Below, in pieces: positions 17,484 through 25,302 of a stretch of DNA of 25,302 nucleotides. The DNA is taken from IMG/VR virus record IMGVR_UViG_3300024999_000005; one strand, 5' to 3'. The notes under the pieces were generated by a model. It worked only from the letters and a program-made list of their open reading frames with translations, was not told the DNA's origin and made no database searches. The translations under genes were made by a program, and so were the position numbers. The stretch is from an uncultured virus (IMG/VR IMGVR_UViG_3300024999_000005). Its lineage: Duplodnaviria; Heunggongvirae; Uroviricota; Caudoviricetes. Position 1 is the first letter of the stretch; every line of letters begins with the position of its first letter.

Positions 17484-17555
17484 TGGCGCCAATGGTGGGT
17501 ATCGAACCCACGAGTATGCTTATAGGCACTGTTTTACCGTCTAAACTACACTGGC
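17484..17555 (-). tRNA. tRNA-like gene with encoded CCA and aberrant anticodon arm (isotype undetermined)
   Basis: GCCAGTG-TA-GTTT-AGACGGTA-AAAC-A-GTGC-CTATAA-GCAT-ACTC-GTGGG-TTCGATA-CCCAC-CATTGGC-G-CCA. Acceptor, D and T arms are intact; the anticodon stem is 4 bp with a 6-nt loop. Confidence 0.8.
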
Positions 17556-18109: not shown

Positions 18110-18514
18110 ATGACGGATGATTTATCAAAAGCTAAAGAATTAAAACAGATTATGATTGATAATAATGATGAGTTCTTAGATTTTACTAGAGATGAACTTA
18201 AGGATCATTTTGAAATTAAAAAATTGGAGGATATCAGAGTTCCTAAAATTGTCGATGCTTGTACTTCGGCTGGTCTAATTATGTATCCTGTGCCAATTCA
18301 AGGTATTACTGTTACTAGGATTTATTTAGCTGGTTCAACTATCGGAAAGTTTTTATACTCAATTCTTAATCCTAGAGTTGATGTAAGCTGTGATAGTGCT
18401 TTTGATATCTGCATAAAACGCATTGAAGGTGCAAGCCCTGCCGAAGTTTATAAAAAAATACAAGGTTTGTTTGTGCAAGAAGGTTGGGCTAAACTTAAAA
18501 AAGTAAAAGATTAA
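18110..18514 (+). CDS. Hypothetical protein (AT-rich moron, antisense to the phage operons)
   Basis: 134 aa; strong AGGAGG RBS, own promoter and terminator; the only credible plus-strand CDS in the window. Confidence 0.85.
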   Translation: MTDDLSKAKELKQIMIDNNDEFLDFTRDELKDHFEIKKLEDIRVPKIVDACTSAGLIMYPVPIQGITVTRIYLAGSTIGKFLYSILNPRVDVSCDSAFDICIKRIEGASPAEVYKKIQGLFVQEGWAKLKKVKD

Positions 18515-18516
18515 TC

Positions 18517-18545
18517 TTAAAGCCGCCCTCACCAGGCGGCTTTAA
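18517..18545. terminator. Bidirectional terminator-like hairpin
   Basis: TTAAAGCCGCC-CTCACCA-GGCGGCTTTAA, a perfect 11-bp inverted repeat between convergent genes. Confidence 0.75.
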
Positions 18546-19003
18546 ATTGCCCCTCTACTAATATGTTGCGATCGTACGACAACCTGAATCTTTTTTTCTG
18601 CTCTTTGTACAAAATTTTGAACGCTACCCTTATTGCACCCCATCAGCATTCCGGCCTGCGAAAAAGAATAGCCACGCCCCCTGACCAAATCAAAGGCATG
18701 TTTTTCCCGTTCGGTCAGCGTCGACATTAAATTGTCCAGCATATCGAGCACGTTTTCAGGGGCAGACTCGGCAGAAATTGTATGAGTGATATATTTAGAC
18801 ATTTCAGCAGGATCAACGGATATTTCCCGCTTAGTTTTGGGCAGTCGCCCAACCTGCCAGTTGGTGCCTGGGATCCTGCCTGTCTGCATTATTTCGATAG
18901 AAAAATTAGCATCTGAGATCATGCTACTGGCCTGCACGGGAACCACTTTAGCATCTCGCAACTCCTTTATAGACTGCTTATATTCCTTAATCAGTTCCTG
19001 CAA
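18542..19003 (-). CDS. xpf: Xpf-like positive control factor (sigma-70 region-4 late activator)
   Basis: MQELIKEYK...MISDANFSIEIMQTGRIPG...LTEREKHAFDLVRGRGYSFSQAGMLMGCNKGSVQNFVQRAEKKI resembles PBSX Xpf along its length; last core gene before the packaging module. Confidence 0.8.
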   Translation of the reverse strand: MQELIKEYKQSIKELRDAKVVPVQASSMISDANFSIEIMQTGRIPGTNWQVGRLPKTKREISVDPAEMSKYITHTISAESAPENVLDMLDNLMSTLTEREKHAFDLVRGRGYSFSQAGMLMGCNKGSVQNFVQRAEKKIQVVVRSQHISRGAI

Positions 19004-24002: not shown

Positions 24003-24713
24003 CTAGAAATTAAAAGCTATTTGCTTTCCTCTTAATTCCTCTCGATACAAAAATAAGTTATGGCGTTTCCTAATTTCGTCTTTCCGCTTAGCTAGTTCCG
24101 CGAGAGGCAAACCCTGTATCCATGTGTATTTCTGATTTTCAAATCCTGCAGCTTTCCAAAACATTTCCGGGTGACGCTCTAGCAGTTCTACCCACTCGAT
24201 CCTTTTCTGGAACGGGCAACAGTAGCAACCTGAGCGAGAACGCCACTGATAGAATTTTGGAAGTCCTATGCCTGCCAACTCCAATATTCTGACTATATCT
24301 GACCTTACTATTCCCTGCTCTTGGAAGGTGTATTTTGTTGTTATATTTTTAGGCCACTTCCACCCTCGGTTAGATTTTGTTTCGTCCGCAGTCAATCCAA
24401 CATGCATCAGAACTTCATCTTGTCCGAGGTATTGGGATAGTGGCTCTATCTTTGTTTTCCTTGTGCACCATCTGGCTTTTGCGCTTGGAAGATACCCACC
24501 CCACCTGATTAGTAAATCCTCAAAACTACTCTGAATAACGGTGATTCTCCCGATTACGCTCTCTAGCTTTGGCAGGTAGGCGTATGCTTCGGGTAACTCT
24601 GCCCCGTTATCGACAAAGACAAATTCAAACTTTCTGTTTGGGTATTTATTTCTTAAATAGACAGCTAAAGCACTGCTATCTTTACCCATACTCAGACTTA
24701 CAATTTCTCGCAC
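24003..24713 (-). CDS. PAPS reductase-family (PP-loop) protein
   Basis: SLSMGKDSSAL PP-loop, FVDNGAELPE, RWCTRKTKIEP and RSGCYCCPFQ. Confidence 0.9.
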   Translation of the reverse strand: MREIVSLSMGKDSSALAVYLRNKYPNRKFEFVFVDNGAELPEAYAYLPKLESVIGRITVIQSSFEDLLIRWGGYLPSAKARWCTRKTKIEPLSQYLGQDEVLMHVGLTADETKSNRGWKWPKNITTKYTFQEQGIVRSDIVRILELAGIGLPKFYQWRSRSGCYCCPFQKRIEWVELLERHPEMFWKAAGFENQKYTWIQGLPLAELAKRKDEIRKRHNLFLYREELRGKQIAFNF

Positions 24714-24805
24714 ACCCGCACCACTTTAGCCAATTTAATCAGCTATGTGGGATTGGGAACCGTATTGACATCCTACGGCAACTAACCGCTATAGATAACC
24801 CTAAC

Positions 24806-24957
24806 CATGCTCAGTTTTACGTCTAGTTTACATATGGCGCCCGGGGTCGTTCTCCGGAACTTCTACGGGCATCCGCTCGACAGCGGGTAGTTACCTATTG
24901 GTGATTACCTCAATGCCCGATTTCGACAACCCGATTTAACGGGATAACTGAGTTATG
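24806..24957 (+). ncRNA. Candidate multi-helix structured RNA (or ssDNA structure), family unknown
   Basis: Six nested helices; non-Watson-Crick positions are G.U on the plus strand (see findings). Confidence 0.5.
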
Positions 24958-24983
24958 CGAGAGATTGGATTTTTGTTTTCCAT
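24936..24983 (-). CDS. Putative 15-aa ORF MENKNPISRITQLSR (leader peptide or disrupted gene start)
   Basis: GAGGTG RBS plus ATG; terminates inside the structured element. Confidence 0.35.
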   Translation of the reverse strand: MENKNPISRITQLSR

Positions 24984-25003
24984 TCTACACCTCTAAATCT
25001 TAC

Positions 25004-25213
25004 TTATAACTTACCAAAAACATTATCAATGTGCTTTTCCCTGTTATCCCTGATCCATTCTAACCATTCTTCGCGTTCTACAAGTTTTCCGCGACATTTG
25101 AAGCAAACTGCAAAAGTAGCTCCTGGAAGTTTTAAATCTTTACAGCGGTCATTTACAAATCCACAATTAAGACACAAAAACCTTTTAGGAGTCTTTTTCT
25201 TTTGTTCTACCAT
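25004..25213 (-). CDS. Small zinc-ribbon protein
   Basis: CLNCG...CFKCRG; GAGGTGGGG RBS. Confidence 0.8.
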   Translation of the reverse strand: MVEQKKKTPKRFLCLNCGFVNDRCKDLKLPGATFAVCFKCRGKLVEREEWLEWIRDNREKHIDNVFGKL

Positions 25214-25302
25214 TGCCCCACCTCATCCAATCGCTTTTTATAAATCCATGTTTCTCGTAATCCTGTTGGTATTGCTCGGCTAACTTTGGATCTAATTCAA
25301 GC
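25185..25302 (-). CDS. 3' end of a hypothetical protein entering from the window edge
   Basis: Open frame LELDPKLAEQYQQDYEKHGFIKSDWMRWGNGRTKEKDS*. Confidence 0.55.
   Translation of the reverse strand, partial: LELDPKLAEQYQQDYEKHGFIKSDWMRWGNGRTKEKDS

Follow-up and report, generated by a model that had tools for sequence, protein, structure and literature searches.

In leader-peptide attenuators, such as those of ermC, cat/cmlA and secM-secA, the next gene has its ribosome-binding site sequestered in a structure, one strand of which is overlapped by a short leader ORF; they need a particular stalling peptide and a hairpin that is small and local. In ribosome shunting on the 35S leader of cauliflower mosaic virus, a large structure has a short ORF ending at its base, and the closing helix of this structure puts the downstream start beside the terminating ribosome. 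In the coat/replicase pair of the RNA phage MS2 a translated segment further upstream pairs with the downstream start and conceals it, and the ribosomes melt this structure, according to the available part of PMC9894550; the bypassing of T4 gene 60 is named in the available part of PMC11194080. For phage anti-defence operons, the accessible portion of PMC13551039 reports Aca-bound RNA motifs, structured and sited within the 5' UTRs, which consist of one or two short hairpins located within 100 nt of the start and bound by HTH proteins. The same portion describes phage PAPS reductases as DndC/SspD-like and as candidates for anti-defence roles, and it links this type of gene neighbourhood to anti-defence genes.

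The element described here comes from an uncultured groundwater phage, which is a dsDNA tailed phage. The sequencing runs listed for this sequence are five groundwater metagenomes of DNA, four of which may be sources of it, and none is of RNA. The window, i.e., the whole stretch of 25,302 nucleotides that was analysed, is a fragment of its genome coding for a portal/Mu-F protein, tail sheath, tape measure, RusA, a sigma factor and other phage proteins, and all its long ORFs are carried by the minus strand. The element fills a gap of 290 nt between an ORF of 69 aa (25004-25213, minus strand) and a gene with a PAPS_reduct domain (24003-24713, minus strand), which matches PF01507 (1.2e-8) and phrog_424 (2.4e-31), starts with a GTG codon at 24713-24711 and is called here the PAPS-reductase-like gene. 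The 69-aa ORF has two CxxC pairs and is zinc-ribbon-like, and searches of Pfam, PHROG and NCBIfam gave no match for it; the upstream neighbour of the element is different in each homologous locus. Elsewhere in the window there is a gene for a phage sigma-70 region-4 protein (18542-19003, minus strand; phrog_1190, 7.4e-28), which adjoins the only plus-strand ORF of note (18110-18514). Since the phage encodes its own protein of this kind, later genes may have promoters for which the host consensus does not hold. A tRNA-like gene is also present on the minus strand (17484-17555; 46.8 bits against the Rfam tRNA); ARAGORN reports it as 'tRNA-???', giving an anticodon of two letters at position 33, and its anticodon loop looks unusual.

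A sequence-only reading of the window had placed an unclassified multi-junction element at 24806-24957. The fold that it described coincides with the minimum free energy structure given by RNAfold for the plus strand (-56.9 kcal/mol, z -4.69, none of 200 dinucleotide shuffles as good), and it is more than chance, since it beats the shuffles, is conserved in nine other contigs and has pairs that covary. The core is thus real, although the conserved unit turned out to be about twice as long as that interval. Exact and degenerate DNA patterns located the element in seven IMG/VR contigs and in two other metagenome contigs, and further pattern scans of viral sequences found the same seven contigs again and added none. 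With the window included there are ten instances, which comprise seven distinct leaders (the window, L011, L023, L010, L013, L012 and L029) from about four to five lineages, and in every instance the element is directly upstream of the PAPS-reductase-like gene. The whole module spans ~285 nt (24695-24985 on the minus strand, with approximate boundaries), as delimited by conservation between diverged flanks. The leaders of the six other variants are 78–93% identical to that of the window, compared to 53–81% nucleotide identity for the PAPS-reductase CDS and 47–53%, which is background, for the 150 nt upstream of the leader. Such a conserved block between diverged flanks makes the leader a discrete module. 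Moreover, because it moves between phages independently of the protein (L029 has 82% nucleotide identity to the window in the leader, 53% in the CDS and 33% amino acid identity in the protein), the leader behaves as a portable regulatory cassette. Mosaic joints were observed at both edges of the leader, at ~24690 and ~24985 of the window, in comparisons of L029/L030 and of L012/L024 with L013.

A covariance model built from the core (R1) was run on 67 sources, i.e., the window and 66 PAPS-reductase loci. It matches eight of these sources, which are the window and seven of the loci, and gives no match in the other 59; the copy is single in the window, in each carrier locus and in all four phage records of 60–70 kb. 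In three relatives with 41–44% protein identity (L043, L044 and L066) the PAPS-reductase gene abuts the previous ORF without any leader, and in a fourth one, with 31% protein identity, a gap of ~30 nt precedes the PAPS-reductase-like gene. The start of the gene in the first three (~1450-1500) lies at, or overlaps, the end of an upstream ORF of ~480–490 aa. Relatives devoid of the module, which had been proposed as empty sites worth searching for, do exist, but they are not syntenic.

In Rfam 15, the whole window at gathering thresholds gave a tRNA (17487-17555) alone, the region 24600-25150 at E≤10 gave only a chance-level match to sobemo_FSE outside the element, and the homologues L029, L013 and L010 at E≤1 gave no match in the leader. 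The element had no match by blastn among 50,697 phage records, nor did the nearest virus record (G001) match it, and pattern scans of 185,579 species genomes gave 0 matches and thus, at that stringency, no prophage copy or host clue. In the literature searched, on PAPS reductase and phage RNA motifs and on phage translational coupling and leader peptides, the element is undescribed. The initial description of an unclassified, RNA-type structured element therefore stands, with no known Rfam family to remove its novelty and with real covariation. We classify the leader as a new RNA family and as a new form of structure-mediated translational coupling or attenuation.

The helices are described here in gene orientation, i.e., on the minus strand. 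A model of 51 pairs (P1, P2, P3, P4, P5a, P6, P7, P11 and P12) was evaluated on an alignment of the seven distinct sequences (A5), in which 96.6% of 354 cells are paired, versus 30.6–45.9% when the partners are slid by one to three columns. Nine pairs are altered on both sides, which was matched by one of 500 shuffles, and the covariation score, 0.217, exceeds the average of the shuffles (0.132) and is reached by none of the 500; this control ignores relatedness, and with only about four to five lineages we take the figures as supportive of the model rather than as proof.

The closing helix that had been noticed on the plus strand, CTCAGTT (24810-16) with AACTGAG (24946-52), is present and corresponds on the minus strand to P2 (5' strand CTCAGTT, 24946-24952; 3' strand AACTGAG, 24810-24816), in which a G-C pair becomes A-U in L029 and one mismatch each is found in L010 and L029. 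The hairpin CCCG-ATTTAA-CGGG is likewise found in the sequence; it is P3 (24930-24943, minus strand), the stem of which, CCCG-loop-CGGG, is kept in the seven variants. A sequence check agrees as well with CGGGCAT (24866-72) pairing with ATGCCCG (24913-19) around CCGCT-CGAC-AGCGG and GTAGTTACC-TATT-GGTGATTAC. This helix is P4 (24866-24919, minus strand), which forms a three-way junction by enclosing P5a and P6 and has 49 of 49 cells paired; two of its pairs are changed on both sides (GC/CG, and AU/UA and AU/CG), giving the variants CGGGCAU/AUGCCCG, CGGAUAU/AUAUCCG and CGGACAU/AUGUCCG. The long 10-bp helix GTAGTTACC/GGTGATTAC was supported in part: it is complete in the window and in L011 only, whereas its outer part keeps 6–7 of nine pairs in the remaining four of six variants. 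Its substitute in the consensus is the hairpin P5a (GGT-AATC-ACC, 24900-24909, minus strand), formed in the 3' half of the long helix, which is the part that covaries, with stems GGT/ACC, GTT/AAC, GAC/GTC or GACT/AGTC depending on the variant (read from the alignments; two pairs counted). P6 (24873-24886, minus strand) reads CCGCT-GTCG-AGCGG in the minus sense; a G-C pair is U-A in four of seven variants, and for the fifth pair the variants have U-A, U·G or A·A. A kissing contact between GTCG in the loop of another hairpin and the CGAC loop had also been suggested, but that GTCG loop occurs in the window alone and is not conserved. The hairpin in question, CCGGGG-TCGTT-CTCCGG, is indeed found at 24841-57 and corresponds to P7 (24840-24858, minus strand; (U/C)CCGG-loop-CCGGG), in which the loop varies and the outer pair is U·G in six variants and C-G in one, a change that is valid on the minus strand alone.

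Two further hairpins, P9 and P11, lie outside the span initially proposed, and in both the stems vary while the loops stay. P9 (24773-24794, minus strand) conserves the loop UUAGUU on a stem that is wholly different between lineages, and P12 (CCAC/GUGG) is capped by P11 with the loop GAUUAAU (24721-24750, minus strand; local folds). The leader of L012/L024 is exactly that of L013 as far as the 5' strand of P12, after which come another P11 stem and another 5' end of the gene. The unpaired junctions of the core are invariant in all variants (UUGUCGAAA, CAAYAGRUAACUACCC, GCCAUAUG and UAGACGUAAAA). Tertiary partners were sought for the invariant stretch UAACUACCC, and no candidate was conserved in all lineages. 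RNAalifold on the minus strand also predicts the pairing GCGCCAU/GUGGUGC, which competes with P12, and the pairing GACGU/AUGUC, which would be a pseudoknot with P2; both have one-sided changes only, and they could be switch states or tertiary contacts. Since the minus-strand consensus of RNAalifold puts other pairings in place of P2, the minus topology given here is provisional.

A small minus-strand ORF had been seen to end within the element, and this was confirmed. In the window this upstream ORF (uORF; 24936-24983, minus strand) has 15 codons and a TAA stop, coding for MENKNPISRITQLSR, and an SD-like GAGGTG (24991-24996, minus strand) lies 4 nt upstream of its ATG. A uORF with an ATG and 15–19 codons is found in the seven variants, even though the sequences upstream are mutually unrelated; six independent in-frame ATGs would arise by chance with a probability of ~1e-5 or less, which is a rough estimate and not a computed value. 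Purine-rich boxes precede the uORF in most variants (GAGGTG, AAGGAG, GGGTG and GAGGAA), those of L023 and L011 being weaker or more distant. The stop codon, which may be TAA, TGA or TAG, occupies positions 2–4 of the P3 loop in seven of seven variants, and the loop sequence varies. The leader thus has a short ORF with its own initiation signals, the frame and the end of which are conserved. The peptide varies (ISRITQLSR, SLTSQFTR, ISHITQYPY) by changes that preserve the RNA pairing; because the one varies while the other is kept, it is probably uORF translation itself that matters, and not the peptide. In L013/L012, the uORF is separated from the ORF before it by 55 nt that contain a GC-rich hairpin, GACCGG-TGCCGAG-CCGGTC, just upstream of the ribosome-binding site of the uORF and with no T-run behind it.

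The translated segment pairs with the downstream initiation region through P1. The 5' strand of this helix (CAATCTCTCGCATA, 24954-24967, minus strand) is inside the uORF, and its partner (TGTGCGAGAAATTG, 24701-24714, minus strand) holds the GTG start and the first codons of the PAPS-reductase-like gene; the start codon (GTG, or ATG in L029) is within the 3' strand of P1 in every variant. Over ten columns P1 is 95.7% paired, with three pairs changed on both sides. The energy of the duplex is between -15.5 and -22.4 kcal/mol in the seven variants, compared to averages from -7.7 to -10.7 for shuffled initiation regions, 0–23 of 500 of which equal the real duplex. Reading of the sequence also gives an SD-like GUGGUG (24719-24724, minus strand) 5 nt upstream of the start codon, which we take as a putative SD because it resembles GAGGTG and GGGTG, two of the boxes that precede the uORF; four of its six bases, GUGG (24721-24724), are the 3' strand of P12.

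From the conservation, the covarying helices, the uORF and its pairing with the start codon, we infer a sense-strand leader of ~285 nt in which uORF translation unmasks the start of the PAPS-reductase-like gene and the fold flagged at the outset is the central domain; we give this reading an even chance of being correct. The leader would be part of a polycistronic mRNA of the phage, just upstream of the PAPS-reductase-like (DndC/SspD-type) gene. The initiation region would be masked twice, by the presence of the SD-like GUGGUG in P12 and of the start and first codons in P1, a long-range helix of 10–14 bp with its 5' strand ~250 nt upstream, within the uORF. Ribosomes on the uORF would open P1 and then P2, and would terminate in the P3 loop; the unwinding would briefly free the downstream start, so that translation of the PAPS-reductase-like gene would depend on that of the uORF. 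The multi-junction core (P2-P7, with its invariant junction nucleotides) probably sets the re-forming of P1 and P2 by binding a protein or a small ligand. The invariance of the junctions suggests that the core binds something or takes a specific tertiary shape, and this also counts against the proposal, as a simple coupling device fails to explain a core of ~140 nt with invariant junctions.

The core could instead be the active part, as a stand-alone functional RNA carried by the sense transcript, for which the uORF and P1 are secondary; it might cleave itself as a ribozyme, be processed into a small RNA or serve as a decoy against a host defence. We consider this explanation possible, at well below an even chance. 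The core junctions are more invariant than a mere spacer needs, the module is far better conserved than its flanks and accompanies PAPS-reductase genes that are only 33% identical, and the neighbourhood is linked to anti-defence genes in the available part of PMC13551039. However, no match to a ribozyme or RNA family was obtained at E≤10 for the window or at E≤1 for three homologues, and the distance between the element and the start codon of the same gene, with which it pairs, is fixed in all cases.

The sequence-only reading had proposed an RNA antisense to the operon. In its extended form, this explanation is a plus-strand ncRNA of ~150–270 nt, antisense to the early operon and expressed from TTGACA, that acts as an immunity RNA or as an antisense regulator of the uORF and of the PAPS-reductase start. 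Compared with shuffles, the window fold of the plus strand is very stable (core, z -4.69; stretch of 305 nt, z -4.84), and the shuffle z is more negative on this strand in the seven variants (in the window, -4.34 versus -3.29). The core alone folds 5–10 kcal/mol better on the plus strand in the window, L011, L023 and L029; on the minus strand of the window it reaches -46.3 kcal/mol with z -2.38, and 3 of 200 shuffles are as good. Besides, some invariant G·U pairs exist only on the plus strand (AGTTA/TGATT, CGTC/GGCG and the CATG extension), the outer P2 pair of L010 is U·G on the plus strand and C·A on the minus, and in the window P1 is a 12-bp helix on the plus strand followed by a T-run.

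The comparison of the variants points in the other direction. In the shared helices, the cells that are not Watson-Crick amount to 26 G·U and 12 mismatches on the minus strand versus 5 G·U and 33 mismatches on the plus strand, a count in which the helices were chosen while reading the minus strand and ~25 plus-only G·U cells in invariant columns are left uncounted. These uncounted cells belong to the plus-only pairs of the earlier description, which gave the imperfect positions as G·U on plus and A·C on minus. The switches between G·U and Watson-Crick pairs in P1, P3, P6, P7 and P11 are valid on the minus strand only, their intermediates being A·C on the plus strand. P11 alone has 10 G·U cells on the minus strand and 3 on the plus strand. 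No covariation occurs in the helices whose G·U pairs exist on the plus strand alone, and four of six variants break the long helix. With RNAalifold, the full leader gives -65.3 kcal/mol and an SCI of 0.73 on the minus strand versus -50.0 and 0.60 on the plus strand, so that the consensus is 15 kcal/mol worse on the latter; an earlier alignment gave -67.5 versus -49.6, and for the core only both strands are equal (-38.0 versus -38.4). Local folds are better on the minus strand for P9 in seven of seven variants (sums of -51.4 versus -33.0 kcal/mol) and for P11-12 in six of seven (-92.9 versus -63.6). The minus strand is also the better one for P1 in six of seven variants, the window being the exception (-18.4 on plus versus -16.6 on minus), and in absolute MFE it is again better in six of seven.

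Expression of the plus strand is also poorly supported by the sequence. TTGACA is indeed present at 24765, but as a promoter it is weak and not conserved: L013/L012 lack it, and no variant has a good -10 box. A consensus scan of 24500-25302 gave neither a promoter-like site at the element nor any terminator. Moreover, a plus-strand RNA leaves the conserved start, frame and stop of the uORF unexplained. We therefore think that an antisense RNA is unlikely, and that the sense (minus) strand probably carries the functional structure, with a confidence of about two-thirds, as judged from the uORF, P1, the G·U cells and consensus folding. The locus is a case in which inspection of G·U pairs in a single sequence and shuffle z pointed to one strand and comparative evidence to the other.

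Marginally less probable still is a core that acts as a sensor or catalytic RNA of a new class, such as a riboswitch-like aptamer or a ribozyme, within a device that hands over ribosomes from the mini-ORF to a start ~250 nt away held near by the closing helix; this would be a bacterial counterpart of shunting that gates a DndC-like, possibly anti-defence, gene. Taken by itself, a sensor or catalytic core has a minority chance. A bypass of the T4 gene-60 type, from the uORF into the PAPS-reductase frame, was considered and rejected, as a matching landing codon is found in some variants only: reading of the alignment gives CGU/CGA in the window and UAC/UAU in L029, and none in L012, L010 and L023.

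Very improbable, finally, is an element acting as DNA, which might be an origin of replication or a signal for single-strand initiation, a joint by which mosaic modules recombined, or a MITE, the last in line with the small non-autonomous insertion initially suggested. In its favour, mosaic breakpoints coincide with both module edges, P2 resembles terminal inverted repeats and PAPS-reductase relatives without the module exist (R1 finds none in 59 of 66 loci, and the gene abuts the previous ORF in three). Against it, the window and each of four phage records of 60–70 kb have a single copy, pattern scans found none in 185,579 species genomes, the ATGC repeats proposed as a target duplication are only 4 nt long and are altered in L010, the P2 inverted repeat covaries like an RNA helix, and the covariation through G·U intermediates together with the conserved frame and stop points to RNA and translation.

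If the unmasking mechanism is true, uncultured groundwater phages provide a new and well-delimited structured RNA family, in which a translated mini-ORF, a long-range helix spanning 250 nt and a conserved multi-junction domain form one unit. It may also reveal a way of silencing a DndC-like, possibly anti-defence, gene as long as there is no translation upstream, and the core would be a candidate RNA of a new kind that binds a ligand or a protein.

Translational riboswitches resemble the leader in that the masked SD and start are preceded by a junction of several stems, the unpaired nucleotides of which are invariant, and mutually exclusive pairings may exist here too (GCGCCAU/GUGGUGC versus P12). 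Unlike them, the leader has no match to an Rfam riboswitch and its association with the gene family is limited (8 of 67 sources); to our knowledge, riboswitches are normally devoid of a translated uORF. With the 35S shunt and T4 gene 60 it shares a short ORF ending at the base of a structure that brings the downstream start near, whereas, in contrast to T4 gene 60, a codon-matched pair of take-off and landing sites is limited to some variants. We know of no bacterial shunt of such size. As in attenuators of the ermC type, the uORF overlaps one strand of the masking structure, but here its peptide is variable, with changes that track the pairing, and the masking acts over a distance of 250 nt. 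The Aca-bound motifs are also structures in phage mRNA leaders, and PAPS reductases (DndC/SspD-like) are listed as anti-defence cargo in the accessible portion of PMC13551039; compared to the motifs described there, the present element is much larger, with ~285 nt, about ten helices and a uORF. The parallel with MS2 is that P1 pairs codons of the uORF with the downstream start codon. MS2 is an RNA phage and its upstream frame is a real gene, whereas in this dsDNA tailed phage the frame is a dedicated uORF of 15–19 codons, the strands of P1 are separated by a conserved multi-junction domain of ~230 nt, and the dependence on translation is deduced. If our reading is true, structural coupling of the MS2 type would extend to an operon of a dsDNA phage.
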